Shown here: positions 1,372 through 64,000 of the stretch, piece after piece
How positions within the stretch are numbered: position 1 is the first letter of the stretch
Layout of the letters: each line of letters opens with the position of its first letter
Assembly: GCA_032718475.1 (NCBI GenBank)
Contig: JAUCBJ010000530.1
Coordinates: 35,991-99,990, forward strand
DNA: 64,000 bases
Direction of reading: 5' to 3'
Origin: Nemertoderma westbladi
Lineage: Eukaryota; Animalia; Xenacoelomorpha
Translations under genes and position numbers: made by a program
The notes under the pieces: generated by a model
What the model saw: only the letters and a program-made list of their open reading frames with translations
The model's database searches: none
Told to the model about the DNA's origin: nothing

Positions 1372-1972
1372 CTAAACATGTAGTGACACCATCTCCTGTA
1401 TATCCAGTTTTGCAACTACAACTAAATCCACCATCAGTATTGGAACAGTCAGCATTAATGTGGCAGTTGTCTGTGTTTAATGTACATTCATCATCATCTA
1501 TAAAATTATTTTAAATTTATTTTTTAAGTAAATATAATTATAATATAAAAATACAAAATGTTTTCAGCTATTAACAAATTATACCTATAATTGTATATGA
1601 AATTATTACCTGAACATGTAGTGACACCATCTCCTGTATATCCAGTTTTGCAACTACAACTAAATCCACCATCAGTATTGGAACAGTCAGCATTAATGTG
1701 GCAGTTGTCTGTGTTTAATGTACATTCATCATCATCTATAAAATTATTTTAAATTCATTTTTTAAGTAAATATAATTATAGTATAAAAAAATAAAATGTA
1801 TCCAGTTATTAACAAATTTGTCTCTAATTGTATATAAATTTATTACCTGCACATGTACTGACACCATCTCCTGTATATCCTGATTTGCAACTACAACTAA
1901 ATCCACCATCAGTATTGGAACAGTCAGCATTAATGTGGCAGTTGTCTGTGTTTAATGTACATTCATCATCAT
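1372..1972 (-). CDS. EGF exons 33-35 (1847-1972, 1610-1735, 1372-1497)
   Basis: Same module; the last exon still ends in a GT donor, so the gene should continue leftward. Confidence 0.9.
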
Positions 1973-4900
1973 CTATAAAATTATATTAAATTAATTTTTT
2001 AAGTAAATACAAGATATATAATTTTAAGTGCAGACTTCCCGTGGTACCGATGAGTTTAAGGTTAGAATGCATGTCGTTGTCGTATGCTCCATTATGCTAA
2101 AACGAATTTTTATGATCAACTGTACAAGAAATGATAAATACATGTATTGAATTATAAATTTCTACAATATTAAATAAATCAATTTTAAACTAAATTAAAT
2201 TAAATGTTTTGTATTTATGTTGAATAATTATTAATTATTAATGTTCTTCAAGTATGTCGAAGAGGCCGCTTTTGTTAGTGGAGTCTACAGTTCCTAGGAT
2301 CGAGGCCGAGTTGCCGATTAGGATGGCTATCAGGAGTCTTTGCAGCAGAAATCGATGAGACCGGGGTTCCTGTGTTGCTTGTCGAATCTTCCTGCCGACC
2401 TCTTTCAGGAATGAGGTTGTTGCTGGTCCTGGCCGGCCAAGGGTTTCGAAGGCTACTGGTGCGAAGAGGTATCCTCGGTCTACTAGTTCTTCGTACTTTC
2501 TGGATTTGGTCTCTTCTTGCTCCTTGGCAACACGACCTCCTGCGGATAGACTGGTAGCGAGATGGCTGGGCGCTAGAGGGTCTATGACCGTCGCGTCCCA
2601 CATCAGGGACTTACCGCGCGACCAAGGGATGAGGGTCATGCCGTCTGGGCGTTTACCGTCCGTTCGACAGAGGCCTGGCGGCTCCAGGATGGACGGAACA
2701 CCACAGCTGGAGAGTGCGCGCTTTATGATGTCATTTAGCGCCGTGTGGCGCGGAATCCGCCCCAAGCTCCTCTGGCAGGACAGGCCATGTAGGCCTTCGG
2801 TATCGACTTCCTTACCGCATCTGGCGCATGTGTGTTGTTCTGTGACTCGACAGCCTAGTCGAGTAGCGATTGAGATATGGAGCTGACTGTCAGTTAGCTT
2901 TAAACCTAGCGACGACGATGGTAGCGCGTCTATCCAGCAACCGGAGACAGGGTCATCTAAAGAGTTTAGTCGAGCGATATTCTTTGGAGAAGCGGTGCGG
3001 CGAAGTGACGCGAGGTTCTCTTCGTGGATCGGGTTTGTCCAAGTCTTCTGCATGTTTACAGAGGACGCTGAAGGTTGCTCGCAATCGGTGGTCACTGATC
3101 TCTTCCAGAGCTCATAGGCGTGATCAGTTAAGGTGTTTCGAGATGGAGTAGGCGCAGTGGTGGTGAAAAGACAGCCAGTAAGTTCAGCACATGCAGCCGC
3201 AGAAGCCAGATAGGCAGAAGGGGCGAGCTGTATGGCTGAGCTTAGGCCCAACCCGCCTGAACGAGCTGGTACACAGGCCTGTATCCACGAACTGTCATTG
3301 ATTCCGACGTTTGCTACTTTCACCAACGCAGACCGCAGTGTATCGTCATATCTTTCCAGAAGCTGGGGAAACGAAAAACATGGAGCAGAGCGGAGGTAAT
3401 ATAGCAGGCGAGGGATTGCGAAAGAGTTCCTAAGCAAGAAGAATCCATGGTGGCTGTCGAGGAGATGAAGCCGGTCGCTAATCAAGGCCAAGTCGTTTAT
3501 CTCGTCAGTCAGACAGGACTCTATAGCCTCAGATCCGATTGGGGCCCCTAGCATAATCAGTTGGTCAGTTAAAGGTAACTGGATCTTTCCGCCACAAACT
3601 CTATTGAAATCTTCCTGAATCCGGGCTCGATCATCATCAGACACTGGACCCAGAAAAAATAGCTCGCACTTTGAGGGGTTTAGGGTGAGGCCAAGTTTCT
3701 TCCCTTCCACAATTATCGTTCTCAGATCATCTAGAACAACGGTATACAATCCTGCCATGTTACCATCGTCAAGATACCATACGTTAAAATCGGATTTCAA
3801 TGAGTGGATGGTGTCGTTGATTGTGTCTCCGAAGAGAGGGGGTCCCTCGGGGTCACCCTGTTGGGCTCCATCATCAGAGACTAAGATTTCATCACCGTGA
3901 ACTAGAAAGCTTGAGTTACCATAGGCAGCCAACGTATAGTTATATATGCTGGGATACTTCCTCGCCACAGTCTCGAGAATGGCATCACGTCGAAGTGAAT
4001 TGAAGGCATTGTTGAAATCTACCTTCAGCAACACCGTGTTGGGAGCGTTCGTTGAAGATATCAAGGACCGGGACGTGGGCTGCAGCCTCTGTCCCATTCT
4101 TTGTTCCTATTCCTAACTGGATGTGGCCGTAAGATTCGATGCTCTGGTCTTTGACTGTGTGGCTGGCGTATTTGGCACTTAGTCTACGCCAGGTATTGCC
4201 TACGGCAATTGGCCGGATGCCACCGAAAATCTTCGTAAATGCTAGCAGATTGGCTCCGAAGTAAGTTGGTCCAATTTTATCTGGAACTTTCCCGGCGTGT
4301 GTTATGCCAATGAATTTCGCGACGGCACCCAGAAGACGATTTCCAGACACCCCAGAGGTAAATACAATTTATTGGGAGTAAATACAATTATAGTATAAAA
4401 ACATAAAATGTATCCAGTTATTAAAAAATTTGTCTCTAATTGTATATAAATTTATAACCTGCACATGTAATGACACCATCTCCTGTATATCCAGTTTTGC
4501 AACTACAACTAAATCCACCAGCAGTATTGGAACAGTCAGCATTAATGTGGCAGTTGTCTGTGTTTAATGTACATTCATCATCATCTATAAAATTATATTA
4601 AATTCATTTTGTAGGTAAATATAATTTTAGTATAAAAACAGAGAATGTGTTTAGCTATTAACAAATTCTGTCTAGATAGTTAGTTATATATGAATTTATT
4701 ACCTAAACATGTAGTGACACCATCTCCTGTATATCCAGTTTTGCAACTACAACTAAATCCACCATCAGTATTGGAACAGTCAGCATCAATGTGGCAGTTG
4801 TCTGTGTTTAATGTACATTCATCATCATCTATAAAATTATTTTAAATTTATTTTTTTAAGTAAATATAATTATAGTATAAAAATATAAAATGTTTTTAGC

Positions 4901-7900
4901 TATTAACAAATTATATCTATAATCAATGGATAACAAATTCTAGAATTTATTCTTAATATTTAAGTGACGCATATTATTTTATCATACATAAACAAATGAG
5001 TATTCTTTAATACTTAATAGAGAATATTGATATTAATCAAAATTAACACAACCAAATTAAATATATATATAAAGAGTTGATCGATAGAGTATTTCAGTAT
5101 TATATGTTATACATTTGTTTATGTGGATCTCAACAGCTCGGCCGTGGGCTAGTATTGTGTCGTTATGTCTCGTCCACGAAGACCGGCCCCATCGCCAAAC
5201 CCAAGTCCACGCCAAGATCTGCGACCACCACGGAGGCAAAGAGAACTCGATCTCAGCAGTGCAAATTGCAATCTTCGTCGAACGCCTCCCAACACGCTGG
5301 CGAGACCGCGCTCACGCATTGGTTGGTGCTTCCCCACCAGGACTTCTGCAATGTGATTGATCAGTATCCTGGTTTCTGGACACCACACACCGTCTGTGGT
5401 ACCCATGAGTGGAGTGAACGACATCCGTCGGTCTTCACAGACAGTGCGGTAGTGGCGCCTCTTATAGATGCAGCGTTCTTCGAGGAGAGACTCGGTGGAT
5501 CGATTGGCCTGGGCGTACGAGGTGGCGTCAGCGTTTATAATCACAACATCTAACGACGCCACCCGTTGGTTCGCCCAGAGCCCTCGCGCTACTAAATCGG
5601 CTCGTACACCCCCGACCGTTGTCCCAGTGTTGTCTAGCTGTCCCTGGGACAGGGTTACCTCGCGCTCGACGCTTGTGGCCCCAACCACAGAAGCAAGCAG
5701 GTCGCCAAACACCTTGCGGACCTCGTCGTGGCACTTCACTATCAAACCCCCCAGCTTGCAGCTCAGGGCATGGGAGGTAGAGAACTCGCCTCCACAACAC
5801 TCGCACTTCACTGGCAGGCCGGGAGGGACTAAGCCATACCGGAGGGCCAGGTTATCGCGGAACTCCTCCGCACTTAGGTCCGTGTGATGTAATACCGAGG
5901 GCTGTGCATTCAGCCAGCCTCTGCTCCGATGGTTTACCGCACGTTCGACCGTTCTCCGCTGGGCTGCAGGGATGGCTTCCAGTACAGAATCCCGTTTCTC
6001 TATAAAGGTTACTTCCAGTTCTTCCCTGGATTTCTTGAGTTCCTGTTTTAGTTGCAAGACGTGATCGGCAACTTGTAGCGTTGTGCCGTTTCAAATCGCC
6101 TCCGAAACTAAGACAGTGCCTTTGGTGGATGCTTGATGCGCCGACAACCTTCTGATCAACGGATCCCGAATTCCAATTCCTCCGTGTCGTGTTGGTAGTA
6201 AAAGCAACTCCTCATCCGTATCCCCAAGAACTGGAAACCCAAAAATGGCAGGTATGAAGTCGAGGAGGAGAGCCGTCCGGATTGGGGCGATTTGGTCTAA
6301 GGTTGTAGGGATCACTCTCAGCAGGTAGTCCCATTCTGCTTGGACGCAGAGTGAGACCGCGGTATGCGCTGATTGGGGGTATTCCTTCGCTACTGCTGAA
6401 AGTTTACGGACACTGTCCTTCCAACCCGCCACCTTCTCGCTAATGTAGACGTTCCTTCCCGACGCAGCCCCGATGAAACCGCCCAAGTAACGATGTCCGG
6501 ATACGATCTGTACCCCTGTCTGGGTAAATAATTCCTGGGCCTCAACTTCACAGCCAGGCTTAACAATCAGGAATGTTTCCGAGGGCTCGGGAAAGTATCC
6601 AATCATTGGACCGATCTCCATAAGTACGTCCCACCACTCACGAATACTGGCGAGTTTACCAGCTGATGAGGAGTCGTCGGCATACCAACATTGAGTCTGA
6701 TCCCTGCGGTTCAGGTCCGGTTGTGGAGAAATAACTGGAGCCGATGGCTCCTCGCGATGGTTGGGCGGTGTCGATTGTGGAGTCGATGGGATGAAGTCTG
6801 TGGAAGATGGTGACTGAGATCTAACCTCACGCAGCTTCCTAACCAATGGTAGGGTTGCGCAGGCGTAGCCAAACATGGCGGCTGGGTCCCCTTGCGTCCA
6901 GCCCTCACTGCTCCACAGTGGATTGTTGCTGCCGTGTAGGTAGAGTGCTGCGTGTCCATTATACGAGTTATATAAAAACCGAGAAGCGCGGTGCCACAGG
7001 ACTCTGCAGTTCCAAAGAGAAACTGGCCGACTCACTTGAGTTGAATGCATTTTTCGCGTCAACGAGAAGCATTGCTTGAGTTTCATCATCCTCGAATACA
7101 GCTGTCATTGCGTGGACTGCCGCTTCGATGCCGGCCTTTATTCCCGCACACAACTGGTCGGCGCCGCACTGCTGAATGAGATCGGCCTTGGTTTCATCCA
7201 TTAGGCAGTTCGCTATGAGGCGGTACAGCACTTCAGGGATTCCGATGGGCCGAACTCCTGGTAGTTTGTCGAGTGCCACTAAACGGCAGGCCCGCAATGC
7301 CCGAATCTCTCCCCATGGTACAACCGTATTGGCCAGACAACGAGTCAAACCCGCTACAGCTTCCCGGAGCCTGGAGCTGTGACCTTCATACCTCGTTAGG
7401 AGTGCGCACCAAAACTCACCGTCACCTCCAACCGGTCCTGCGCTACCACGCAACGCTCTCGCATTCTTCGAAACACACTGCCCAGTAATATCGATCCCTT
7501 CGAACTGCGGCAGGTCGTGACAGGGGTCGAGTGATTCCACCGGAACTTCCATCTGAGGTAGGTGTTTCTCCACCAGGATGTCTCTAACCGTGACACCAAG
7601 GGGTTTACCCCCTGCATGCGCATTCGGGTCCAACATTCCGCCAGAATCCCGATCGGTCACTAACCTCACTGCGGCCCGGTCCATCCCCGCGAGAATCTTT
7701 CGGTTGAATAACCGCGCTGAATTATCAGCTGTGGAAATGCCTCTACTCGAAGGGAACTTCGCGTTACAGCGCTCCGACTCAGTGAGGAGGGGGTCGAACT
7801 CGCCACGCTCCCACATCTCAACACGCCTCAGTATCGTTCTCCTGATATCAGGACTCTTTACTACATCCGGGTCCCTCTGAAACATTAAGGCGATGAAGCA

Positions 7901-10900
7901 CAGAGGGCGTTCTGAAGGGTGCTGACCCTGAGTAAGGCCCTCAATCTCCTGGGTGAGAACATCTACGAGCTTACGCCCAGCATTGCCACCTGGAACCACA
8001 TACCTCCTACTGGGTAACTGAGCCAGACGAGCATGTCTAGCTTCCCAAACGGGATCCATTGAGCTTCCAGGACCGTTAATCCACACGCCACCGAAGGCGG
8101 ATTCGAGGACCTTGGAAGTTGAGAGAGGCGTTGAAGGTGACGACTCAGGAGAACCTGCTACCGGAGAAGGGCCCGAGCTAGTGGGAGAAAGTTGGCCTGC
8201 GTTGTTTCCAGTTGCCAAGCTTGCGTTGCTGTTTAGAGCGGCTGTTTGTGGGTTTAAACAGCTTCCTGACGACGACGGCGTGCAATTCGCACAAGGGCGT
8301 TGGGCCCTGACACATCCACATCGACTGGTGGGGCTACATCCACTAATCGTGCAGCCACAGCAGCGCTGTGAACTGAGCGACATTGGATCCTTGGTGGTAA
8401 TAGGATCTTCTGCTATTGATATAGTATCCCCCACTCTAGATGTAATTACTGGATTTTGAGGTTTAGATATGCAAGGAGTTAAATGGGAAATTATAAAACC
8501 AGATCCTATACAGGATGTACCCTTCACATTCTTATGCTTCCGCAACTTACCACTTTGATTGGCTGCAATCATTTTTTGGCAGGAAGGGCATAGATTTTTG
8601 CCAGTTTGTGCAATAGGAGGCTGGTTAAGAGAACCTTGCTGAGTTGGGGAGGGTTGATGGGTTGGAGGAGAAACTGATTGGGTGGTAGGTAACTGGGTGT
8701 TAGTGGGTTGTGAGGGGACTGAGTCTGCAGCTTTCACTAGAACTGATTTTAATGACACCAAGGAATGAAGATATACACGAAAGGACTGCATAGAGGTATC
8801 GTTAACTGTTTCAATCGACTCCTTATTTAGGATGAGTTGTGCAAACTTACAGACGTAGATACCACATTGATAACCATTGTACTGGAGCTTAGGGAGTGGA
8901 GGAGAAATATGAAAATCACATAGAGGGATTCTGAAACGATTAGCCTCATTAGATAGCCATAATTTGAATTCATCTATGAGTTTTAAGTCCAATCCACCAA
9001 GTGAGTTGAAATAGCAAATCTCCCATGTAGCGGGTGAAAAGGTAAGCAGTGTCCAATGGTTGTTACAATGGATGGGAAAGAATAAATAATCTAATGAAAA
9101 GTCACTTAATCTGGTCCAACTTTTTAATGATTCATAACCTCCTTTGCTCCTTAGTATATAAAGAAAGCGAGTGCTGAAAACTCGTACTTTCTGTGCATTC
9201 GCAATGCACATTACACCAATGACACTTTCTATAATGTTATCTGTTACCCAATTTTGGCCGTCCAAGCTTCCAATATCCCTTTCTGAGAGTGTAAAACCTT
9301 CATAATTGTATGTGTTTACATAATTGGGGGGGGACGTCATTCGAGAGTAGCGATTCGGTAAGGTCGATGCAGCTTGAATTCATTTTACAGGTAGTAGTAG
9401 ATCAGCTAGTTGTTGGGCGAAAGTCCAATAAAACATGTAATATACATTTGGTGGGCAATATAACATAAATTAACATCATTATACTAGGCCTATATCATAT
9501 TAAGGTTCCTATTTTTATAAATCTTATTTTTGTAGTAACAATTACGTAATAGCTAGTATATAATAAAAATTCACTCTGAGAATTAACTCTGAAAATTTAT
9601 TCACCCTCTCTTACTCAAAAATTCTAGAAACCCCATCTAAATAAAATATAATATATAAATCCAATTATATCTATAATTGGATTTAAATTTATTACCTGCA
9701 CATGTAGTGACACCATCTCCTGTATATCCAGTTTTGCAACTACAACTAAATCCACCATCAGTATTGGAACAGTCAGCATTAATGTGGCAGTTGTCTGTGT
9801 TTAATGTACATTCATCATCATCTATAAAATTATTTTAAATTCATTTTTTAAGTAAATACAATTATAGTATAAAAACATAAAATGTATCCAGTTATTAACA
9901 AATTTGTCTCTAATTGTATATAAATTTATTACCTGCACATGTAATGACACCATCTCCTGTATATCCTGATTTGCAACTACAACTAAATCCACCATCAGTA
10001 TTGGAACAGTCAGCATTAATGTGGCAGTTGTCTGTGTTTAATGTACATTCATCATCATCTATAAAATTATTTTAAATTCATTTTTTAAGTAAAATACAAT
10101 TATAGTATAAAAACATAAAATGTATCCAGTTATTAACAAATTTGTCTCTAATTGTATATAAATTTATTACCTGCACATGTAATGACACCATCTCCTGTAT
10201 ATCCTGATTTGCAACTACAACTAAATCCACCATCAGTATTGGAACAGTCAGCATTAATGTGGCAGTTGTCTGTGTATAATGTACATTCATCATCATCTAT
10301 AAAATTATTTTAAATTTTTTTTTTAAGTAAATATAATTATAGTATAAAAATATAAAATGTTTTTAGCTATTAACAAATTATATCTATAATTGTATATAAA
10401 TTTATTACCTGCACATGTAGTGACACCATCTCCTGTATATCCTGATTTGCAACTACAACTAAATCCACCATCAGTATTGGAACAGTCAGCATTAATGTGG
10501 CAGTTGTCTGTGTTTAATGTACATTCATCATCATCTATAAAATTATTTTAAATTTATTTTTTAAGTAAATATAATTATAGTATAAAAATATAAAATGTTT
10601 TTAGCTATTAACAAATTATATCTATAATTGGATTTAAATTTATTACCTGCACATGTAGTGACACCATCTCCTGTATATCCTGATTTGCAACTACAACTAA
10701 ATCCACCATCAGTATTGGAACAGTCAGCATTAATGTGGCAGTTGTCTGTGTTTAATGTACATTCATCATCATCTATAAAATTATTTTAAATTCATTTTTT
10801 AAGTAAATACAATTATAGTATAAAAACATAAAATGTATCCAGTTATTAACAAATTTGTCTCTAATTGTATATAAATTTATTACCTGCACATGTAATGACA

Positions 10901-13900
10901 CCATCTCCTGTATATCCTGATTTGCAACTACAACTAAATCCACCATCAGTATTGGAACAGTCAGCATTAATGTGGCAGTTGTCTGTGTTTAATGTACATT
11001 CATCATCATCTATAAAATTATATTAAATTCATTTTTTAAGTAAATACAATTATAGTATAAAAACATAAAATGTATCCAGTTATTAACAAATTTGTCTCTA
11101 ATTGTATATAAATTTATTACCTGCACATGTAATGACACCATCTCCTGTATATCCAGTTTTGCAACTACAACTAAATCCACCAGCAGTATTGGAACAGTCA
11201 GCATTAATGTGGCAGTTGTGTGTGTTTAATGTACATTCATCATCATCTATAAAATTATATTAAATTCATTTTTTAAGTAAATACAATTATAGTATAAAAA
11301 CATAAAATGTATCCAGTTATTAACAAATTTGTCTCTAATTGTATATAAATTTATTACCTGCACATGTAGTGACACCATCTCCTGTATATCCTGATTTGCA
11401 ACTACAACTAAATCCACCATCAGTATTGGAACAGTCAGCATTAATGTGGCAGTTGTCTGTGTTTAATGTACATTCATCATCATCTATAAAATTATATTAA
11501 ATTCATTTTTTAAGTAAATACAATTATAGTATAAAAACATAAAATGTATCCAGTTATTAACAAATTTGTCTCTAATTGTATATAAATTTATTACCTGCAC
11601 ATGTAACGACACCATCTCCTGTATATCCAGTTTTGCAACTACAACTAAATCCACCAGCAGTATTGGAACAGTCAGCATTAATGTGGCAGTTGTCTGTGTT
11701 TAATGTACATTCATCATCATCTATAAAATTATATTAAATTCATTTTTTAAGTAAATACAATTATAGTATAAAAACATAAAATGTATCCAGTTATTAACAA
11801 ATTTGTCTCTAATTGTATATAAATTTATTACCTGCACATGTAATGACACCATCTCCTGTATATCCAGTTTTGCAACTACAACTAAATCCACCAGCAGTAT
11901 TGGAACAGTCAGCATTAATGTGGCAGTTGTCTGTGTTTAATGTACATTCATCATCATCTATAAAATTATATTAAATTCATTTTTTAAGTAAATACAATTA
12001 TAGTATAAAAACATAAAATGTATCCAGTTATTAACAAATTTGTCTCTAATTGTATATAAATGTATTACCTGCACATGTAGTGACACCATCTCCTGTATAT
12101 CCAGATTTGCAACTACAACTAAATCCACCATCAGTATTGGAACAGTCAGCATTAATGTGGCAGTTGTCTGTGTTTAATGTACATTCATCATCATCTATAA
12201 AATTATATTAAATTCATTTTTTAAGTAAATACAATTATAGTATAAAAACATAAAATGTATCCAGTTATTAACAAATTTGTCTCTAATTGTATATAAATTT
12301 ATTACCTGCACATGTAGTGACACCATCTCCTGTATATCCAGTTTTGCAACTACAACTAAATCCACCATCAGTATTGGAACAGTCAGCATTAATGTGGCAG
12401 TTGTCTGTGTTTAATGTACATTCATCATCATCTATAAAATTATTTTAAATTCATTTTTTAAGTAAATACAATTATAGTATAAAAACATAAAATGTATCCA
12501 GTTATTAACAAATTTGTCTCTAATTGTATATAAATTTATTACCTGCACATGTAATGACACCATCTCCTGTATATCCAGTTTTGCAACTACAACTAAATCC
12601 ACCAGCAGTATTGGAACAGTCAGCATTAATGTGGCAGTTGTCTGTGTTTAATGTACATTCATCATCATCTATAAAATTATATTAAATTCATTTTTTAAGT
12701 AAATACAATTATAGTATAAAAACATAAAATGTATCCAGTTATTAACAAATTTGTCTCTAATTGTATATAAATTTATTACCTGCACATGTAGTGTCACCAT
12801 CTCCTGTATATCCAGTTTTGCAACTACAACTAAATCCACCATCAGTATTGGAACAGTCAGCATTAATGTGGCAGTTGTCTGTGATTAATGTACATTCATC
12901 ATCATCTATAAAATTATTTTAAATTTATTTTTTAAGTAAATATAATTATAGTATAAAAATATAAAATGTTTTTAGCTATTAACAAATTATATCTATAATT
13001 GTATTTAAATTTATTACCTGCACATGTAGTGACACCATCTCCTGTATATCCTGATTTGCAACTACAACTAAATCCACCAGCAGTATTGGAACAGTCAGCA
13101 TTAATGTGGCAGTTGTGTGTGTTTAATGTACATTCATCATCATCTATAAAATTATATTAAATTCATTTTTTAAGTAAATACAATTATAGTATAAAAACAT
13201 AAAAATGTATCCAGTTATTAACAAATTTGTCTCTAATTGTATATAAATTTAATACCTGCACATGTAATGACACCATCTCCTGTATATCCTGATTTGCAAC
13301 TACAACTAAATCCACCATCAGTATTGGAACAGTCAGCATTAATGTGGCAGTTGTCTGTGTTTAATGTACATTCATCATCATCTATAAAATTATATTAAAT
13401 TCATTTTTTAAGTAAATACAATTATAGTATAAAAACATAAAATGTATCCAGTTATTAACAAATTTGTCTCTAATTGTATATAAATTTATTACCTGGACAT
13501 GTAATGACACCATCTCCTGTATATCCAGTTTTGCAACTACAACTAAATCCACCAGCAGTATTGGAACAGTCAGCATTAATGTGGCAGTTGTCTGTGTTTA
13601 ATGTACATTCATCATCATCTATAAAATTATTTTAAATTCATTTTGTAGGTAAATATAATTTTAGTATAAAAACAGAAAATGTGTTTAGCTATTAACAAAT
13701 TCAGTCTAGATAGTTAGTTATATATGAATTTATTACCTAAACAAGTAGTGACACCATCTCCTGTATATCCAGATTTGCAACTACAACTAAATCCACCATC
13801 AGTATTGGAACAGTCAGCATTAATGTGGCAGTTGTCTGTGTTTAATGTACATTCATCATCATCTATAAAATTATATTAAATTCATTTTTTAAGTAAATAC

Positions 13901-16900
13901 AATTATAGTATAAAAACATAAAATGTATCCAGTTATTAACAAATTTGTCTCTAATTGTATATAAATTTATTACCTGCACATGTAATGACACCATCTCCTG
14001 TATATCCAGTTTTGCAACTACAACTAAATCCACCATCAGTATTGGAACAGTCAGCATTAATGTGGCAGTTGTCTGTGTTTAATGTACATTCATCATCATC
14101 TATAAAATTATTTTAAATTTATTTTTTAAGTAAATATAATTATAGTATAAACATATAAAATGTTTTTAGCTATTAACAAATTATATCTATAATTGTATAT
14201 AAATTTATTACCTAAACATGTAGTGACACCATCTCCTGTATATCCTGATTTGCAACTACAACTAAATCCACCAGCAGTATTGGAACAGTCAGCATTAATG
14301 TGGCAGTTGTGTGTGTTTAATGTACATTCATCATCATCTATAAAATTATATTAAATTCATTTTTTAAGTAAATACAATTATAGTATAATAACATAAAATG
14401 TATCCAGTTATTAACAAATTTGTCTCTAATTGTATATAAATTTATTACCTGCACATGTAATGACACCATCTCCTGTATATCCAGTTTTGCAACTACAACT
14501 AAATCCACCAGCAGTATTGGAACAGTCAGCATTAATGTGGCAGTTGTCTGTGTTTAATGTACATTCATCATCATCTATAAAATTATTTTAAATTCATTTT
14601 GTAGGTAAATATAATTTTAGTATAAAAACAGAAAATGTGTTTAGCTATTAACAAATTCAGTCTAGATAGTTAGTTATATATGAATTGATTACCTAAACAT
14701 GTAGTGACACCATCTCCTGTATATCCTGATTTGCAACTACAACTAAATCCACCAGCAGTATTGGAACAGTCAGCATTAATGTGGCAGTTGTCTGTGTTTA
14801 ATGTACATTCATCATCATCTATAAAATTATATTAAATTCATTTTTTAAGTAAATACAATTATAGTATAAAAACATAAAATGTATCCAGTTATTAACAAAT
14901 TTGTCTCTAATTGTATATAAATTTATTACCTGCACATGTAATGACACCATCTCCTGTATATCCAGTTTTGCAACTACAACTAAATCCACCAGCAGTATTG
15001 GAACAGTCAGCATTAATGTGGCAGTTGTCTGTGTTTAATGTACATTCATCATCATCTATAAAATTTTATTAAATTCATTTTGTAGGTAAATATAATTATA
15101 GTATAAAAACAGAAATTGTGTTTAGCTATTAACACATTCTGTCTAGATAGTTATATTTGAATTTATTACCTAAACATGTAGTGACACCATCTCCTGTATA
15201 TCCAGTTTTGCAACTACAACTAAATCCACCATCAGTATTGGAACAGTCAGCATTTATTTATTTATTTCGTACATATTAAATTGCATTACAACAACTAATA
15301 GTACAGCATACATAGTGGAAAAGCACAAGAATATGAATATGAGCCTAAACTACTATAGTACAATATTGAATATATATAATGCTAATTACGTAGTACAACT
15401 AAATATCAATATAACGATCGCCTAGTTCAACTAGTAAATAGTTACAAAGTGTTTACAATAATTACAAATTAGATCAAATCGATATACATTTACAATCGTT
15501 GTATCACATATGAAAAATTGAAAAATCCTATTTAAATTATAATTTCGGGATTATTTCTAAAGGTTACGAAGCACATATATAATTTAAAATATCATTAAGT
15601 TCCTCTGTGGAGAAACCTGGTACGAATAAATCGTCCTCCCCATGTTTACAATTGACCAATTCACGACAAAGATTAATATATGGTAAATTAGAATCATTTA
15701 CAAACCAAGAAATATTATTGCACATTTTCGCTGTCACACAATGAATAGCTAGATTACATTTATTGGCGATACGCTTAAGATTCGTACCACTAATCGACCT
15801 ACAGTCGTATAATGTAAGATTTGCAAGAAAACGAATACTAGGTTTTGCGCAATTAGAAATTGATGTGGCAAAATTAACAAAGCGGCTGCATAACATCGTC
15901 ATAGGATACGGAAAATCTGAAAGCCCCTCAACAAAAAATCTGTGTGTATTGTAAGGTAATTTCCAGGTTAAACGAAAGTTAATATTCCAACTAGTAATCA
16001 GCTTATGACAACTATCACTCCAATATCCCATAGAATACTACCGTAGAAACTTGTAGCAAAAATGTGCTGAATTTTACAGATACTGTGTGGATGAGCAAAG
16101 CTAAATTCACGTCTAATACAATTCAATTTACCTATGAATTTACCTCTTTTACTTAAAATATCTTTATAGAATTTGCCCTCAAAATCAAAAATGTTTCCCA
16201 AATGTGTCGCTTCTATAACCCATGGTAAAATAATGTTACGAATTCGAAAAGTAGCTACTGGGACATTCCAACTGAAATCAAAAGGGATGCACTTCGATTT
16301 ACTTTTAACCGCGTCACGGTTGGTACTAAACGACATATGAAATTCATCAGCAAACGTGACACATATATTTAACATCTGTTGCAACCCTTTAATTGACGGG
16401 CACACTAAGAAAATATTGTCAGCGTATACGAACACACCTACAAATCTGGATGCAATGTGACAACCAAGGGCACTGGCTCTAAGTTTAATAATTAGTTTGT
16501 TTATAATAACACAAAACAAAATCGGTGAAGCCCCCGAATCCTTGTCTGACACCATTGCCAATACTGAAAGTTCTCGAACATGTTGAACCCCACTTGACAA
16601 AACAATATTGACCATTATACATAAATAATAATGTACGCAAAAACAACGAAGAAAACCCTTTATTGAAAAGTTCTAGGAATAACGACTTCCATTCAATCAT
16701 ATCAAATGCCTTAGTTAAATCTAATAAGCATCCAAAAACAGGGGTGGAATTAATGTGGCAGTTGTCTCTGTTTAATGTACATTCATCATCATCTATAAAA
16801 TTATATTAAATTCATTTTGTTGGTAAATATAATTTTAGTATAAAAACAGAAATAATGTGTTTAGCTATTAACAAATTCTGTCAAGATAGTTATATATGAA

Positions 16901-49900: not shown

Positions 49901-52900
49901 CAGAAGTCAGTTTACCAGCTAACACCTGTTGGAAGCTAAAGAAGACAGTATATGGATTAGTCGATGCATCTCGTAATTGGTATAATCATGTCGACCATGT
50001 AGTAAGAGAGGCAGGTATGTTTCGTAGCAAGGTGGATCCAGCATTGTATTTTATGCACAGAGGTGAAAAACTCGAGGGTCTATTGCTTGTTCACGTTGAT
50101 GATTTCTTGTACGCTGGATCAGATTGGTTCAAGATAAATATTATGTCAAAGATTCAAAGCAAATTTACCATTGGAAAAATTACTGAGAATTGTTTTTCGT
50201 TTCTGGGTCTATGTATACAAACTGTTATAGATCAAGGTGATCGTTTTCTAATTGCTATTTCCCAACAGGACAAATTTACAAAGTTGTGTGATATTCAATG
50301 TTCGGCTAACAGGAATAAATCTGAGTTGCTAACAATAGAAGAAATATCATTGGTAAGATATCTTCTAGGTAGTCTACAATGGGCTGCGTCATTAACTCGC
50401 CCAGATCTTTCATTCAGTGTTTCAGCTCTACAATCAGAATTGAAGGATCCTACGGTGGAGATAATTACCAAGGTCAATAAATTGTTGCGAAAAGCCAAGG
50501 CTTTTTCACCAAATTTTATTTACCACCGTCCAATGGATACAATTAAGCCAATTGTCTACACTGATAGCAGCCATGGTAATCTGCAAGATGGAGGTTCTCA
50601 AAGTGGCGCTGTCATAGTATTAGAAGATGAAAAAGGAAAATTAATCAATGTTGTGAACTGGCGATCTCATCGAATACGTCGTATTGCTAGATCAACATTT
50701 GCCGCCGAAACATTGGCATCAGCAGCTACTATGGATCTTGCACTGTATATGGATTACATTCTCAATGAATTTATGATAAAACGAAATAACTGGTCAATAC
50801 GGTCTGACTGCAAGAGTCTCGTTGATGCTGTGCATAGTTTAACGAATGCTCCATTGGAAAAACGACTCAAAATCGATCTCGCTTCACTTCGGGAGGCTAT
50901 GAAATTATATTGCATGGTTTTCGAGTATGTGCCGACAAAGATGCAATTGGCTGATGTACTAACCAAGGAGACATCTGGTTATCAACTATTGAAACTCTTA
51001 GAATGAATTATTGTGTTTATTCTTATTAATATTTAAAAACTTTAATACACTTGTCTAGTTAAAAATAAAAATCATATGAATGTCATAACTCTATGAAAAC
51101 TCTATTAGCTAGTTATGTCTACCAGCTGATAACCTTAACAGCTGTTATAGTAAGCACTATTTATGTATGTACTTTCTATGTTATCTTGTCTTTAGTTGAT
51201 TGTGTAAAAGGTTAATTGATTGTAGTTTATACCGATATTACAATACTTGATATCACATATTATACGCCCAAATCCATTGTTTATCATTTTTATTCATTCA
51301 TTTCAAACTTTTTGTTGTGTTTTATGAAATGTTTTTGAAAATATTTTGTTAGGTTGGGTATGTGAAATTTTTGAAGAAAAATTTTCACCAATTTTTTTTT
51401 CAAAAATTCAACATATATATAACTATTACTAAATATTTAATATTAAAGAAGACAAATTAGAAGTTTATCGTGCCTTGATTTCTCTATATTGTGAATATTT
51501 ACAATATAATATGTCAATAAACATAACTAACTATATATCTAGGTATTTCATAAATCAGCATATAGAATATCACAATAAGAAATAAGCACCCTAAGGACTA
51601 AAGGTGACTCACGCTGCTTTCTGACTACGGATATAACAATTTTACGTAAGGAATATCTCTTTACTTGTTCGCTCACTTCAGTTGATAATTCGGAGTACGA
51701 GCTCAAATAATGCCATATAGAGTAAAACCTTTTATTAAATATGTTAATTGTATTAACAATGCCATAATTTGTACCCCATGATGTGACTGACAATACAAGG
51801 CAAAGCTGATAATGATGGTCATCAGATGATAATATAGTCAGAGAGTTGGCAGCATGATATATGATTACTACAGAAGTCAGTACCAGTGTCATCTGTAATT
51901 TTAGCCAGTCGCCTTTGCTGTGCGCAATAGCCCAACAGTTCGCAATCAGCCATTTTAATTTCCAATTTATCTACATTATCATAACCAGTGTGTTTTAATC
52001 AGAAATCAGGAATCTCAGTAGCGATCAGTTCTATGATAGCAGAGGGCACTGTCAAAGACCTATCATCTGTTCTTGCACAGGGCTTCTAAGTTTTGGTAAC
52101 AAGACATTACTCCGAAATTATCCAATGCAATTTTTGTTAACCGTTTATCTTATATCATGGACCATTCATAGCATCCTGGTGAATGTGTGAGAACCGGTGC
52201 TGAGAGATGCACGTGGTCTGTGTAAGTGGTAAAGTGAGAGTTAAATAATTGTTTGAGCATGTGGACGATTTCTGTTACCTGGAATCATGGATCTCGAAGT
52301 CAGGTGAGGACCTTCGAATACGTAATCTAATTCTACGAATTCACAAGAATGCTACGCCGGTTTCACTGTGTCAAGTACAATGCACACATCTCCAATCAGA
52401 CGCTATATAATATTGGGGGTATCTCATTGGTTCCCCCAAGGTTGAGTCTAGAACAAAGCCGCATCCGATTTGCTGGACATTGCCTTCGCCGTGGGGACCA
52501 GCCAGTGCATAATCTTGTGATCTAGAAACCCCATGGAGAAAATAATCATGGTGGACACCCCATGACTTTCGTGAGACACCTAAAGGACACTGGCCTTGAA
52601 GATGTGGATAATCTCGTGAAAGTCATGTGGGATAGGGAGTTGTGGAAGTGCAATTTTGTTGATAAGCTGGTATAGCATTCTTAATGCATGCTGCATTGGG
52701 GCATGCCAATTGTGGACTGCATGTTGGTGGCAAAAAAATATAAAAAAAAAATATTTTTTCAATGTGCAGCTTCAATGCAGCAGGCCGATTATAGTAGTAG
52801 TAGTAGTAATAGTAGTATAGAAGGAAAACAACTTGAGAATTCGAAGAGAACTGCCGGAACCATAGATATTAATAAGAATTAAGAAGGTTCAGAAATTGCA

Positions 52901-55900
52901 GAAGTGTAAGCTGCTTATTAGCCGTTGAGAGCTTAGGTCACTGACAATATACGTAGCTGCATATTATGGCAAATCTACTAGCGATTATTTACATTTCTAC
53001 CATAAAGGGATCTTCTGCAGTAATGATACAGTCTGATATATAGCGGAACAGGTGCGGAACTAATACCTGGAATACATGCCTTTCAGAGAAGGTTTTCCGT
53101 CCAGGTGACTTTCATACATACCCTTAATAAGTGATTTATTTAATCCACACAATGTGTTCCAGTTCATATTTGGTGGTCTTCAAAAGATTTCTGAATCAAG
53201 ATCTAATTATATTAGGCAGCAGAAAAGTTTTCCATATGACCAAGAAGGCCATCCACAACACCTGAACACACTCATTGTCATGACATGCTAACTAGAAACC
53301 ATGTTTACAGTCAGAATTGTAGACTTTGTAGCATTTACAAATTGACCGGCATTGGATGCTGCTTGTTCTACATAGTCTACTAAGTAGTCACCCAATATTT
53401 CAGAAATAAAACGCAGATCATCAGTAAAGTAGAGCTCCCTCAATTGTATTCAGTAAAACATATACCATTATTTAATTGTTACCTTTTTATTAATTTAATT
53501 ACACTTCAAAATAGCACAATATATACTTTATATTTATGGCATTAAAAGAAAAAATAATCTGACCCGTGATGGTAGCATGATGAGCGGGAGGGGGAGACAG
53601 GAGGAACCGATGGGATCGCGGCTTCTGAGTGATTATTACCTACCTGAAATGAAATATATCGATTGTTGTAATGGTGGCTGTGGGACCATAAATGCGGCTT
53701 GGATAGGAAGATTTAACACCGCGCAACTGTCTCCTCCAGGAAGTAGCACCTGAGTTACCGCACCTGAGAAGTTGACATAAACAATATTAAACAGTTTACC
53801 ACAGGGCGATTATGGTTCTAAGCGCACTTTACACTGAGGTGATTGTGCAGTCTTTAAAACTAATTTATTATTAAACATCATTAAACATATTAAACAATTA
53901 AATTTATTATATATTTTTTATATTTATTTTTTAATTATCATGTTCTCCAGTTGATCCTGTACTGACTTTTTAAATAGAAATAGGCCGTTTAGAGAAAACA
54001 TGGAGGTCATTCGTTGTTCCAGAAACCTTTGCTAAATCTTGATATTGCTGTTGAATTGAGGAAATTCCTGGCTGATTGGGGCCATTCGTGGCTGATTGGG
54101 GACATTAGTGGCTGATTGGGGAGATTCTTGGCTGATTGGGGACATTCCTGGCTGATTGGGGCCATTCGTGGCTGAATGGGGCCATTCGTGGCTGATTGGG
54201 GCCATTCGTGGCTGATTGGGGCCATTCGTGGGTGATTGGGGCCATTCATGGCTGATTGGGGCCATTCGTGGCAGATTGGAGAAATTCCTGGCTGATTGGC
54301 GAAATTCCTGGCTGATTGGGGACATTCCTGGGTGATTGGGGACATTTGAGGCTGATTGATAGATATTCCTGGCTGATTGATGGATATTCCTGGCTGATTG
54401 GGGACATTCGTGGCTGATTGGGGAAATTCCTGGCTGATTGTGGACATTCGTGGCTGATTGGGGACATTCCTGGCTGATTGTGGACATTCGTGGCTGATTG
54501 GGGACATTTCTGGCTAATTGGGGAAATTCCTGGCTGATTGGGGCCATTCATGGCTGATTGGGGACATTCCTGGCTGATTGGGGACATTCTTGGCTGATTG
54601 GGGCCATTTGTGGCTCGGCTGATTGGGGCCATTCGTAGCTGAGTGGGGACATTCCTGGCTGATTGGGGCCATTTGTGGCTCGGCTGATTGGGGCCATTCG
54701 TAGCTGAGTGGGGACATTCCTGGCTGATTGGGGCCATTCGTGGCTGAATGAGGCCATTCGTGGCTCGGCTGATTGGGGCCATTCGTGGCTGATTGGGGCC
54801 ATTCGTGGCTGATTGGTGCCATTCCTGGGTGATTGGGGAAATTCCTGGCTGATTGGGGCCATTCGTGGCTGATTGGGGACATTCGTGGCTGATTGGGGAA
54901 ATTCCTGGCTGATTGGCGCCATTTGTGGCTGATTGGGGACATTCCTGGCTGATTGGGGACATTCCTGGCTGATTGGGGCCATTCGTGGCTGATTAGGGAC
55001 ATTCCTGGCTGATTAAGGACATTCCTGGCTAATTAGGGCCATTCGTGGCTGATTGGGGACTTCACTGGCTGATTGGGGACATTCATGGCTGATTGGGGAC
55101 ATTTCTGGCTGATTGGGGCCATTTGTGGCTGATTGGGTACATTCCGGGCTGATTAGGGACATTCCTGGCTAATTGGGGCCATTCGTGGCTGATTGGGGAC
55201 ATCACTGGCTGATTGGGGACATTCCTGGCTGATTGGGGCCATTCGTGGCTGATTGGGGACATTAGTGACTGATTGGGGCCATTCGTGGCTGATTGGTGCC
55301 ATTCGTGGTTGATTGGAGCCATTCGTGGTTGATTGGGGAAATTCCTGGCTGATTGGGGCCATTTGTGGCTGATTGGGTATATTCCTGGCTGATTAGGGAC
55401 ATTCCTGGCTAATAGGGGCAATTCGTGGCTGATTGGGGATATCACTGGTTGATTGGGTAGATTCCTGGCTGATTGGGGCCATTCGTTGCTGATTGGGGAC
55501 ATTAGTGACTGATTGGGGACATTCGTGGCTGGTTGGGTCCATTCGTGGCTGATTGGGGACATTCCTGGCTGATTAGGGACATTCCTGGCTAATTGGGGCC
55601 ATTCGTGGCTGATTAGGGACATCACAGGCTGATTGGGGAAATTCCTGGCTGATTGGGGCCATTCGTGGCTGATTGGGGACATTCGTGGCTGATTAGGGAC
55701 ATTCCTGGCTAATTGGGGCCATTCGTGGCTGATTAGGGACATCACTGGCTGATTGGGGACATTCCTGGCTGATTGGGGCCATTCGTGGCTGAATGAGGCC
55801 ATTCTGATTGGGGCCATTTGTGGCTCGGCTGATTGGGGCCATTTGTGGCTCGGCTGAATTGGGGCCATTCGTGGCTGATTGGGGCCATTCGTGGCAGATT

Positions 55901-58900
55901 GGGGCCATTCGTGGCTGAATGGGACCATTGTGGCTCGGCTAATTGGGGACATTCGTGGCTGATTGGAGAAATTCCTGGCTGATTGGAGAAATTCCTGGCT
56001 GATTGGGGACATTCCTGGCGGATGGGGACATTTGAGGCTGATTGATGGATATTCCTGGCTGATTGATGGATATTCCTGGCTGATTGATGATATTCCTGGC
56101 TGATTAGGGACATTCGTGGCTGATTGGGGAAATTCCTGGCTGATTGGGGCCATTCGTGGCTGATTGGGGACATTTGAGGCTGATTGATGCATATTCCTGG
56201 CTGATTGTGATGGATATTCCTGGCTGATTGATGGATATTCCTGGCTGATTGGGGACATTCGTGGCTGATTGGGGAAATTCCTGGCAGATTGTGGCCATTC
56301 GTGGGTGATTGGGGACATTCCTGGCTGATTGGGTACATTCCTGGTTGATTAGGGCCATTCCCGGCTGATTGGGGACATTCCTGGCTGATTGGGGCCATTC
56401 GTGGCTGATTGGGGACATTCGTGTCTGATTGGGGCCATTCGTGGGTGATTGGGGCCATTCATGGCAGATTGGGGCCATTCGTGGCTGAATGGGACCATTG
56501 TGGCTCGGCTGATTGGGGACATTCGTGGCTGATTGGAGAAATTCCTGGCTGATTGGCGAAATTCCTGGCTGATTGGCGAAATTCCTGGCTGATTGGGGAC
56601 ATTCCTGGCTGATTGGGGCCATTTGAGGCTGATTGATGTATATTCCTGGCTGATTGGCGCCATTCGTGGCTGATTGGGGACATTCCTGGCTGATTGGGGA
56701 GATTCCTGGCTGATTGGGGCCATTCGTGGCTGATTGGGGACATTCCTAGCTGATTAAAAGGACATTCCTAGCTAATTGGGGCCATTCGTGGCTGATTGGG
56801 GAAATCACTGGCTGATTGGGGACATTCCTGGCTGATTAAAAGGACATTCCTGGCTAATTGGGGCCATTCGTGGCTGATTGGGGATATCACTGGCTGATTA
56901 GGGACATTCCTGGCTGATTGGGGACATTCCTGGCTGATTGGGGCCATTCCTGGCTGATTGGGGACATTCCTGGCTGATTAGGGAAATTCCTGGCTACTAC
57001 TACTAGGATCGGCATGCTGCATTGCAGCTGCATTTTTAAGAATGCTGTGCCGGCTTGTCAACAAAATTGCACCGCCACAACTACCTATCACCCATGACAT
57101 TTGCTAGATCATCCGCATCTTTAAGGCCAGTGTCCTTTAAGATGCGTCTCAAGAAAGTCATGGGCTGTCCACCATGCTTATTCCACCTGGCTGATTGGGG
57201 ACATTCCTGGCTAATTGGGGCCATTCGTGGCTGATTGGGGACATCCCTGGCTGATTGGGGACATTCCTGGCTGATTGGGGACATTCCTGGCTGATTGGGG
57301 CCATTCCTGGCTAATTGGGGCCATTCGTGGCTGATTGGGGACATTCCTGGCTGATTCGGGACATTCCACAACATTTGTCTCTCCTGCTGATGGTGACACA
57401 GATCCATTCGAAGTCTTATGGGGAGTCCTTCAGGGTGACACACTTGCACTATTCTTATTCGTAATTGTTGTTGATAGTGTTCTACACATTTCATTAGACC
57501 ATCTTAATAAAGATGGTAACACCACCTACTGGCTCCAGAAGTCGAGGAAATCCAGCAAAGTACCTTAATACTCTAGGCAGTAGTAGTAGGCCTACCAATA
57601 CTCTTATGTGAGATCATGCTGGGCTCTAACTGCAGCGGATAACAAATCTCTGTATGGCACTTTCACAAGAATGCTGCCCGGGTTCATTGGGTACTAGTGT
57701 GTTTTGTGCCCACACCCCCCCCCCCAATTTTCTAAAATGCTAGTTTTCTGTTACTTTTTTTTTAATGTTCTAGAACATATTGTCTATTCATTTTTTTATT
57801 AATTTTGTTCTAGAACAAATAATTGTTGTTCTAGAACAAAATTAATTAATTAGGTATTTTTGAAGTTATCAAAGCTAGTTTTTTTATTTTATTTTTTTAA
57901 TGTTCTAGAACATTTCGTCTATTCATTTTTGTAAAAAGTAATGTTCTAGAACAAATATTTTTTGTTCTAGAACATTTAAAAAAATTTTTTTGTGGTGTTT
58001 TTTATTTGATTAGTAAGTGTTAAAAACAATTACTAACAACTACAAATTTTCATTGTAGCTAGTGATTTTTATTAAATATGTGATACAAAGAAACATAGAA
58101 TAACAAAATTTACAAATTAGCTAGTTTTTTTTGTTTTTTTTTTGTTCTAGAACAAATAATATGTTCCAGAACAAAATTTCTATATTAAATGAATAGATAA
58201 TATATGCTCTAGAACATTTTTTGTAAAGGAAACAAAAACTAGCTAGTTTAAAAAATTTATACAAAGATAACATACAATAAAAAATGAAAAATATAAACAA
58301 GTTAGCTTATTTTTTTTCTATTTTTTGTTCTAGAACAAAAATATTTGTTCTAGGACAAAGTTTTATATTAAATGAATAGATTATGTTCTAGAACATGTTT
58401 TAAAAAAAAGTATCAAACACCATCTAGTATAAAAATATTTGAGGGGGGTGTGCACAAAACACACTAGTACCGGTTCATTGTGTCAAGTACAAAGAACACA
58501 TCTCCAATCAGACTCTATACAACATTGGAGGTGTTCCATTAATCACCCCGAGTTGGACACTTGAACGGAACTACCCCGCTTTGCAGGACATAGCTTTTGC
58601 CGTGAAGACCAGCCAGTGCATAATCTTGTGCTTTGGCGGCCTCATGGATTTAATAAGCATGATGAGAGCCGATTTGTCGACAAGCTTGCACAGCATTCTT
58701 AACATATATATAATATATATATAATGCAGCTGTAATGCAGCATGCCGATCATAGTAGTAGGGGTAGGGGACATTTCTGGCTGACTGGGGACATTCCTGGT
58801 GTATCCTAGTGACATAAAGTTACAATAAATTTTGATTCCTAAGTTTAAAATATGCGATAATTATCATCTTATGAAAAATAACTGCAGCAAAAATATATTA

Positions 58901-62479: not shown

Positions 62480-64000
62480 GAGCAACAAGTTTCCCACGTG
62501 AGAGGGGTCCAGCAACAAGTTGCGAAATAAGTTTTGGAAACAAGTTGCAGACACAAGTTTCCCCCGTATAAGGAGTCCACCAACAAGTTTCCCATGCGTG
62601 AGGAGTCCAGCAACAAGTTTCTGTGTGTGAGGGGTCCTGCAACAAGTTTTCCGTGTGTGAGGAGTCCAACAACCAGTTTTCCGTGTGTGAGGAGTCCAAC
62701 AACAAGTTTTCCGTGTGTGAGGGGTCCAGCAACAAGTTTCTGTGCTTGATGAGTCCAGGAACAAGTTTTCCGTGTGTGAGGAGTCCTGCAACAAGTTTTC
62801 CGTGTGTGAGGAGTCCAACAACAAGTTTTCCATGTGTAAGGGGTCCAGCAACAAGTTTTTGTGCATGAGGAGTCCTGCAACAAGTTTTCCGTGTGTGAGG
62901 AGTCCAACAACCAGTTTTCCGTGTGTGAGGAGTCCAACAACAAGTTTTCCGTGTGTGAGGGGTCCAGCAACAAGTTTTCCGTGTGTGAGGGGTCCAGCAA
63001 CAAGTTTCCCGTGTGTGAGGAGTCCAGCAACAAGTTTTCCATGTGTGAGGGGTCCAGCAACAAGTTTTCCGTGTGTGAGGGGTCCAGCAACAAGTTTCCC
63101 GTGTGTGAGGAGTCCAGCAACAAGTTTTCCATGTGTGAGGGGTCCAGCAACAAGTTTTCCGTGTGTGAGGGGTCCAGCAACAAGTTTTCCATGTGTGAGG
63201 GGTCCAGCAACAAGTTTCCCGTGTGTGAGGAGTCCAGCAACAAGTTTTCCATGTGTGAGGGGTCCAGCAACAAGTTTTCCGTGTGTGAGGGGTTCAGCAA
63301 CAAGTTTCCCCTGTGTGAGGAGTCCAGCAACAAGTTTTCAATGTGTGAGGAGTCCAGCAACAAGTTTCTGTGCTTGATGAGTCCAGCAACAAGTTTTCCG
63401 TGTGTGAGGGGGTCCAGCAACAAGTTTCTGTGTGTGAGGGGGTCCAGCAACAAGTTTCCCGTGTGTGAGGAGTCCAGCAACAAGTTTTCCATGTGTGAGG
63501 GGTCCAGCAACAAGTTTTCCGTGTGTGAGGGGTCCAGCAACAAGTTTTCCATGTGTGAGGGGTCCAGCAACAAGTTTCCCGTGTGTGAGGAGTCCAGCAA
63601 CAAGTTTTCCATGTGTGAGGGGTCCAGCAACAAGTTTTCCGTGTGTGAGGGGTTCAGCAACAAGTTTCCCCTGTGTGAGGAGTCCAGCAACAAGTTTTCA
63701 ATGTGTGAGGGGGTCCAACAACAAGTTTCTGTGTGTGAGGGAGTCCAACAACAAGTTTTCTGTGTGTGAGAAATCCAACAACAAGTTTCTGTGTGTGAGG
63801 GGTCCAGCAACAAGTTTTCTGTCTGTGAGGAGTCCAGCAACAAGTTTTCTGTCTGTGAGGAGTCCAGCAATAAGTTTTCAGTGTGTGAGGAGTCCAGCAA
63901 CAAGTTTTCTGTGTGTGAGGGGGTCCAGCAACAAGTTTATGTGTGTGTGAGGGGGTCCTGCAACAAGTTTCTGTGTGTGAGGAGTCCAGCAACAAGTTTC
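62480..64000. repeat. 30-bp satellite (agcaacaagttttccgtgtgtgagg[g/a]gtcc), about 50 units, continuing past the window end
   Basis: Clear 30-bp period; source of the ENLLLDPSHT / ATSFPCVRGP ORFs. Confidence 0.97.

Follow-up and report, generated by a model that had tools for sequence, protein, structure and literature searches.

We examined a 64,000-nucleotide stretch of the Nemertoderma westbladi genome (contig JAUCBJ010000530.1, positions 35,991 to 99,990 of the forward strand, assembly GCA_032718475.1; hereafter the window, with positions counted from its first letter) and found that it probably holds a real, unannotated gene on the minus strand, a reading to which we give a probability of about 0.6. 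As judged from the DNA sequence, this gene would encode a secreted protein made up of a signal peptide, a hemopexin-like head, and a rod of at least 34 calcium-binding EGF (cbEGF) modules. The window is spliced eukaryotic DNA. It is AT-rich, with 27-30% GC over long stretches and GC-rich islands between them, and several tandem arrays in it repeat every 237-240 bp, their minus-strand unit consisting of one 126-nt exon and one intron of 111-118 nt. Our gene model runs along the minus strand from five unique exons (E1 to E5), which were joined by their coordinates in a script, into these EGF exons.

Exons of the head and their splice joins

The head is encoded by the following exons:

E1, 59093-59063 (-): 31 nt, comprising ATG, 10 codons, and 1 nt; donor GTAAGT; hydrophobic start of the predicted signal peptide
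E2, 53763-53644 (-): 120 nt, phase 1-1; end of the predicted signal peptide, Cys24, and first half of blade 1 (IQAAF..IYFIS)
E3, 46144-45990 (-): 155 nt, phase 1-0, donor GTTAGT; remaining half of blade 1 (W..DGYPK) and opening half of blade 2
E4, 44985-44823 (-): 163 nt, phase 0-1; putatively the remaining half of blade 2 and the opening half of blade 3
E5, 38890-38633 (-): 258 nt, phase 1-1, donor GTAAGT; putative remainder of blade 3, blade 4, and Cys239 (RWGHC)

An earlier reading of the window from its letters alone (the sequence-only reading) had proposed five unique exons of 727 nt, encoding about 242 amino acids and spliced in frame onto the EGF array. We reproduced these coordinates exactly, with AG and GT at the exon borders. 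The five lengths (31, 120, 155, 163, and 258 nt) sum to 727 nt and translate into 242 amino acids with no stop. The donors are, in order, GTAAGT, GTAGGT, GTTAGT, GTAAGT, and GTAAGT, and all four head acceptors consist of a pyrimidine-rich stretch followed by AG. Exon phases of 1, 1, 0, 1, and 1 are compatible throughout, and the phase in which E5 ends (phase 1) is also the phase in which the first EGF exon (37474-37349) begins, as the in-frame join requires.

Open segments bounded by AG and GT are plentiful in this DNA (836 phase 1-1 candidates in 20 kb), so splice sites alone are weak evidence for exons. The case beyond chance is made by four other observations. E1 is the sole candidate (1 of 1) in the 10.2 kb upstream of E2 that starts with ATG, stays open, ends in phase 1, and has a GTRAG donor. 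When the spliced head was searched against the window by tblastn, only the five exon places matched, which supports the gene model. E5 was read at a depth of about 19 and about 24 in two DNA sequencing runs, which is single-copy depth, while the surrounding transposons reached depths from hundreds to over 100,000; E5 is thus not repeat-derived. The fourth observation is the choice of E3 and of the E2-E3 splice by a model of hemopexin blades, which is described in the next section.

The proposed N-terminus is strongly hydrophobic (mean hydropathy of E1 3.77), which fits the signal peptide that had been predicted. Slightly upstream of the start lies TATATTTA (59120-59113), and an AG at 59113-59112 is a possible acceptor for a leader exon. 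At the other end of the head, the frame would extend by 14 mostly hydrophobic residues to a stop if the E5 donor were left unused (38586-38632, minus strand); this may be a short tail or a chance product of AT-rich sequence.

Hemopexin signal in the spliced head

Every blade of the proposed propeller except the last is split by an intron, and our Pfam and structure runs took unspliced pieces only. The spliced head was scored with hidden Markov models (HMMs) of our own. A Pfam PF00045 search of Myxococcota genomes, which we had reached via an EGF protein, gave matches in one of five and then in 9 of 401 genomes. All 29 matches lay above the PF00045 cut-off (21.3 bits, with which the scores from our own HMMs are not comparable). 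Two blades shorter than 34 amino acids were dropped, and a blade HMM was built from the other 27. A domain HMM of 204 positions was built from eight whole four-blade domains from six genomes.

The blade HMM scored the spliced head at 18.5 bits (E 7e-8 for a single target), with the match at residues 31-72, across the E2/E3 junction; that stretch accounts for 17.3 bits. None of 5000 shuffled heads reached 18.5 bits, the best of them giving 10.6, and the head read in reverse gave -1.2. The joined exons E2 and E3 gave 20.5 bits, versus 2.2 bits for E2 alone and 8.1 bits for E3 alone, and the other 11 ordered exon joins gave at most 8.9 bits. A full blade thus arises only after the E2-E3 splice, and this supports both the splice itself and the family assignment of blade 1. 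Scored as a segment of its own, blade 1 reached 22.0 bits, a value equaled by none of 2000 shuffles. Among the 1096 six-frame open reading frames (ORFs) of the window, the E3 ORF ranked first with both models (13.2 bits with the blade HMM and 11.7 bits with the domain HMM), and the best unrelated ORF scored 8.6 and 7.6 bits, respectively. On sequence grounds, blade 1 is a genuine hemopexin-type blade that spans the E2/E3 splice.

With the domain HMM, the head scored 18.9 bits (shuffle maximum 8.2). This alignment covers residues 43-111, so that it takes in the opening half of blade 2 and crosses the E3/E4 junction, and the model adds a weak stretch (-0.7 bits) at residues 203-224, the position of blade 4.

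The sequence-only reading had also pointed to two cysteines after the signal peptide that bracket the domain (DSCAV...RWGHC) and to the motifs IQAAF, IYFISG, and DGYPK. We found DSCAV, IQAAF, IYFIS, DGYPK, and RWGHC in the head, and cysteines at residues 11 (within the hydrophobic N-terminus), 24, and 239 only. Exactly two of these thus follow the predicted signal peptide, Cys24 at seven residues before the blade-1 motif and Cys239 at three residues past the last tryptophan. In the hemopexin domains of matrix metalloproteinases (MMPs), the first and last blades are held together by one disulfide (PMC3045013). The head agrees with this feature of the hemopexin family (one cysteine at each end) by position, and the bond itself is putative.

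After the signal peptide, the head measures about 215 amino acids, which is the size of four blades (blades of the family have about 45-55 amino acids). Partial detection is ordinary for diverged members, since four of the six bacterial hemopexin proteins that match PF00045 show just one or two blades to Pfam. A single propeller blade cannot fold alone. Because blade 1 is accompanied by the right length, the end cysteine pair, and this constraint on folding, we consider it likely that the head is a four-bladed hemopexin-like propeller closed by Cys24-Cys239, in which the fold of blades 2-4 and the disulfide are predicted.

The cbEGF array

The EGF exons lie downstream of E5 as follows:

cbEGF exons 1-3, 37474-37349, 37234-37109, and 36994-36869 (-): 126 nt each, phase 1-1
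cbEGF exons 4-5, 33003-32878 and 32766-32641 (-)
cbEGF exon 6, 17034-16909 (-)
cbEGF exon 7, 15170..16792 (-): split after its 44th nt; 3' half at about 15251-15170 (the ends of the halves are derived from offsets)
Run of 23 cbEGF exons, 9696..15055 (-): uninterrupted; homogenized introns of 111-118 nt, period 237-244
Two cbEGF exons, 4828-4703 and 4584-4459 (-)
Three cbEGF exons, 1972-1847, 1735-1610, and 1497-1372 (-)

The first EGF exon matches EGF_CA (PF07645) with 44.5 bits (cut-off 27) and EGF_3 (PF12947) with 47.6 bits (cut-off 28.5). The claim of 34 or more near-identical modules held up on counting. There are 35 EGF exon starts, of which one is interrupted (16792) and 34 are intact, each of 126 nt between AG and GT, without a stop, and in phase 1-1; the last of them in the window ends at 1372, as had been read. 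All six cysteines are invariant in 34 of 34 intact exons, and every one of these begins with D-[D/V/N]-D-E-C. A D-x-D-E-C start together with an Asn/aromatic pattern is the calcium-binding consensus, and by their sequence the modules of the array are bona fide cbEGF modules. The 34 intact exons encode 22 distinct peptide variants.

Whole exon-intron units of about 237-244 bp stand head to tail with 94-98% identity. Mean pairwise diversity is 3.1% in the EGF exons versus 7.7% in the introns (2.5 times less in the exons), with variable sites at 21 of 126 exon columns versus 36 of 122 intron columns. There are no indels among the EGF exons; intron lengths are 111 nt (16 introns), 112 (7), 118 (3), 114 (2), and 116 (1). 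The lower diversity of the exons and their lack of indels argue for constraint on the reading frame. Two common variants, D/A at residue 21 and T/S at residue 30, are found in every one of their four combinations, a pattern that suggests exchange between units.

A search with the EGF module gave 17 matches, 46-74% identical to one module, none with PF00045 and none from the source organism itself. The nearest proteins were fibrillin-like or LTBP-like proteins of amphioxus, sea star, tunicate, and scallop (55-74%) and EGF-repeat proteins of Myxococcota. Separately, a 156-nt contig assembled from one sequencing run (X4) fits exactly one EGF exon (36872-36997), and its ends mismatch the introns on either side. 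The contig may derive from spliced RNA of this array or of a sister array, but we could only guess whether the run is RNA or DNA and do not count it as evidence. Reads of the same run, mapped over 36800-43100, left E5 uncovered.

The EGF exon that ends at 1372 is followed by a GT donor, so the gene continues past the left end of the window. We recognized no further exon in positions 1-1371, and the C-terminal end, with an anchor or other domains, is outside the window.

Comparison with known protein families

In its blade-1 pattern (18.5-22 bits), its four-blade size, and its one cysteine per end, the head resembles the hemopexin-like domains of PF00045, which occur in MMPs, vitronectin, hemopexin, and bacterial proteins. 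It differs from them in its N-terminal position, directly behind the signal peptide and ahead of cbEGF modules, and in that its blades 2-4 are beyond sequence recognition. The sequence-only reading had described the propeller as stand-alone, noting that hemopexin domains usually follow an MMP catalytic domain. A search of all six frames of the 64 kb found no HExxHxxGxxH zinc motif (one interrupted by an intron would escape this search), and PRCG is absent from the gene strand within the window. As far as the window shows, the predicted head stands alone, without a protease domain. In the six bacterial hemopexin proteins examined, the accompanying parts are PhoD, MACPF, or protease-like, and EGF is absent from all six. 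Among the Myxococcota proteins, hemopexin repeats are fused to MACPF, to a PhoD-like phosphatase, and, in an 850-amino-acid protein with 10 or more blades, to a reprolysin-like stretch; these proteins are encoded at L037:103-1650 (+), L030:1-2076 (+), and L044:556-3105 (-) of our genome set.

The rod resembles those of fibrillin, LTBP, and fibulin in its EGF_CA/EGF_3 match, its six cysteines, the D-x-D-E-C start, and the short linker between modules. Unlike in fibrillin and LTBP, no TB/8-Cys or other module was seen among the 35 units of the window, although no TB-specific search was made. Unlike in fibrillin-type rods, the units here are near-identical, their introns are homogenized, and the N-terminal head is of another kind. 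For its near-identical exon-intron units arranged head to tail, the array may be likened to the kringle IV-2 array of apolipoprotein(a), which is made of copy-number-variable exon-intron units; the type of module differs.

Both module families are textbook, and EGF exons of phase 1 are often shuffled in animals. What appears to be new, provisionally, is the combination of signal peptide, hemopexin-like head, and cbEGF array. Our full-text literature searches found no description of a protein with hemopexin and a cbEGF array; since no architecture database was queried, the word undescribed is provisional. The nearest case was a figure legend on ctenophore lectin-domain proteins, which gives HX, EGF, and EGF_ca among the domain abbreviations (PMC11797021).

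Proposed product and its significance

If the gene is expressed as modeled, the signal peptide would direct secretion of the product. Fibrillin-type cbEGF rods are stiffened by calcium, and from fibrillin work each cbEGF adds about 3 nm; on this basis, at least 34 tandem modules would form a rigid, calcium-loaded rod of about 0.1 micrometre. The hemopexin fold binds ligands or partner proteins in known members, and the head may have a ligand-binding role at the tip of the rod. Unequal crossing-over between near-identical exon-intron units could change the number of repeats. We regard as speculative, and on balance doubtful, the wider proposal of an undescribed extracellular class, in which a stand-alone hemopexin-type propeller at the tip of a calcium-stiffened EGF rod of about 0.1 micrometre, with a length that is tuned and varies between individuals by unequal exchange, would serve length-polymorphic adhesion or self/non-self recognition.

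Expression as modeled would give the hemopexin fold a new context, that of an N-terminal, protease-free binding head on a cbEGF rod. The locus would also be a clean natural case of exons and introns homogenized together, and a substrate for rapid length change. For annotation, it shows how family scans made exon by exon overlook a domain that four introns and 20 kb of transposons break up, and that the spliced product alone reveals it. The gain would be one of architecture and not of principle.

Single-exon searches

Searches with individual exons gave little. At E ≤ 10, a phmmer search of the PDB returned no match for E4 or E2, and E4 showed no family signal of its own in that search or with the blade HMM. 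With E3, four weak matches were obtained at the same threshold; the fourth was 1pex_A, the isolated hemopexin domain of collagenase-3 (MMP-13), with an E of 0.72 that is not significant alone but agrees with the hemopexin reading. Its alignment to E3 keeps the blade register: the Trp, the YP, and an acidic-Phe stretch are matched, and two further blades align weakly. In a language-model atlas, the clusters nearest to E3 carry Reg_prop, SGL, NHL, and LVIVD (0.81-0.84), which are beta-propeller repeat families and which we treat as a lead only. An AF2 model of E5 alone (pLDDT 57) has seven strands and one helix, the helix coming after the first two strands and before the other five, and a Foldseek search with this model found nothing in the PDB at E ≤ 0.001.

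Two candidate relationships of E5 were rejected. Its three HMMER matches among proteins were 21-amino-acid repeat artefacts, namely internal repeats of unrelated proteins without hemopexin. The language-model atlas placed E5 beside Hydantoinase_B fragments (0.95, with a recognition value of 1814, below the 2300 mark), and Pfam has no such match.

Alternative explanations

A number of results weigh against the gene as we read it, and we consider them here together with the explanations that they would favor. One insertion is needed for this discussion:

Ty1/copia LTR (long terminal repeat) retrotransposon, 46207-51242 (+): complete, in intron 2; RVT_2 and rve; open gag-pol frame of 1501 amino acids

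The head may be no propeller, but an unrelated or novel domain of about 215 amino acids that contains one hemopexin-like motif of about 45 amino acids. Where the sequence-only reading had called the whole head a hemopexin-like propeller, our HMM supports the first blade; blades 2 and 3 are at noise (-1.4 and -1.0 bits, scores equaled by 660 and 887 of 2000 shuffles), and the signal of blade 4 is marginal (0.5 bits, equaled by 154 of 2000). Likeness between blades is significant in one of six pairs only (blades 2 and 3, 13 of 1000 shuffles), the other five being at chance. Pfam was empty at E ≤ 10 for all three head exons scanned (E2, E3 in a 52-amino-acid version, and E5). For E5 (85 amino acids), the adverse results further include the atlas placement, the lack of any PDB match by phmmer at E ≤ 10, and the lack of a true homologue among 1.84 billion representative proteins searched with HMMER. 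Word-indexed searches of longer proteins gave nothing for E5 and two candidates for E3, neither of which was scored, and a profile of three exon units gave seven PDB matches without a hemopexin chain; MAFFT alignments of the units were poor. Against a novel domain stand the length beyond blade 1, which suits three more blades, the two cysteines that bracket the domain, and the domain HMM, whose alignment continues into blade 2 and whose weak stretch falls at blade 4, in the expected order. The strands of the E5 model and the propeller clusters near E3 point the same way, as does the inability of one blade to fold alone. We thus judge a non-propeller head to be unlikely.

A different objection concerns the state of the locus, whose exons may once have formed this gene, before transposons swelled its introns, while the full-length protein is no longer made. 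EGF exon 7 is split by a same-strand, 5'-truncated RVT_1 retroelement of about 1.5 kb with an (AAAT)n tail (RVT_1 in 16001-16672), the ORF of which continues in frame from the exon. The copia element lies 62 nt from the E3 acceptor, and its two 100% identical LTRs of 162 nt, TG..CA ends, and 5-bp target duplication (ATACT) suggest that it inserted very recently. An out-of-frame ATG at 59100 (-), 7 nt upstream of the proposed start, opens a frame that stops in E3. The ratio pN/pS among the EGF copies is 0.94, without a sign of purifying selection on replacements, and the failure to find a homologue of E5 would fit decay as well. However, all five head exons and 34 of the 35 EGF exons retain open frames, exact lengths, and both splice sites, and no exon other than exon 7 is damaged. 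Exon 7 still has its acceptor, both halves, and its donor, and it is symmetric (phase 1-1), so that skipping it would preserve the frame. A pN/pS of 0.94 is what copies that are very young or exchange sequence would be expected to show, the exons have 2.5-fold lower diversity than the introns and are free of indels, and large introns filled with transposable elements are normal in genomes rich in such elements. A dead or decaying locus is a minority explanation in our estimate. Less probable still is a division into two genes, that is, a small secreted hemopexin-like protein (E1-E5) that ends soon after E5 and an independent EGF-repeat gene downstream. The E5-to-EGF join is predicted from genomic sequence alone, and the 14 mostly hydrophobic residues and stop reached by reading through the E5 donor could form a short tail; but AT-rich intron often reads as hydrophobic by chance, the donor is a consensus GTAAGT, and its phase 1 is that of every EGF exon. 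The 1.2 kb that separate E5 from the EGF exons showed no start exon or signal peptide from which the array could begin on its own, and no other head-like or EGF sequence was seen upstream. A single minus-strand gene with a hemopexin-like head and a cbEGF rod remains the reading that we prefer.

Other mobile elements and repeats

Further mobile elements occupy the introns of the gene model:

Unclassified GC-rich element in two inverted copies, 33263-36834 (-) and 39285-42988 (+): similar long ORFs, no Pfam match
Mobile-element ORFs in the introns of the EGF array, 6971-9379, 2241-4106, 19344-19652, and 28837-29715 (-): Ulp1 protease (Peptidase_C48) of 803 amino acids, RVT_1 fragments, and DUF4371

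E5 and EGF exons 1-3 lie between the two copies of the GC-rich element, which reach 64% GC in this AT-rich genome, and the plus-strand copy contains a 15-nt proline-rich coding repeat at 40934-41427. The DUF4371 ORF is transposase-associated.

Intron 1 contains a 20-bp satellite at 54055-56995 (2.9 kb, about 145 copies) and 57186-57367 (9 copies), with 82-90% matches, and related 20-mers occur near 58760-58810. At its right end (62553-63999) the window has a 30-bp satellite of 48 copies, to which a short array at 27093-27243, in the 15.6-kb intron, is related.

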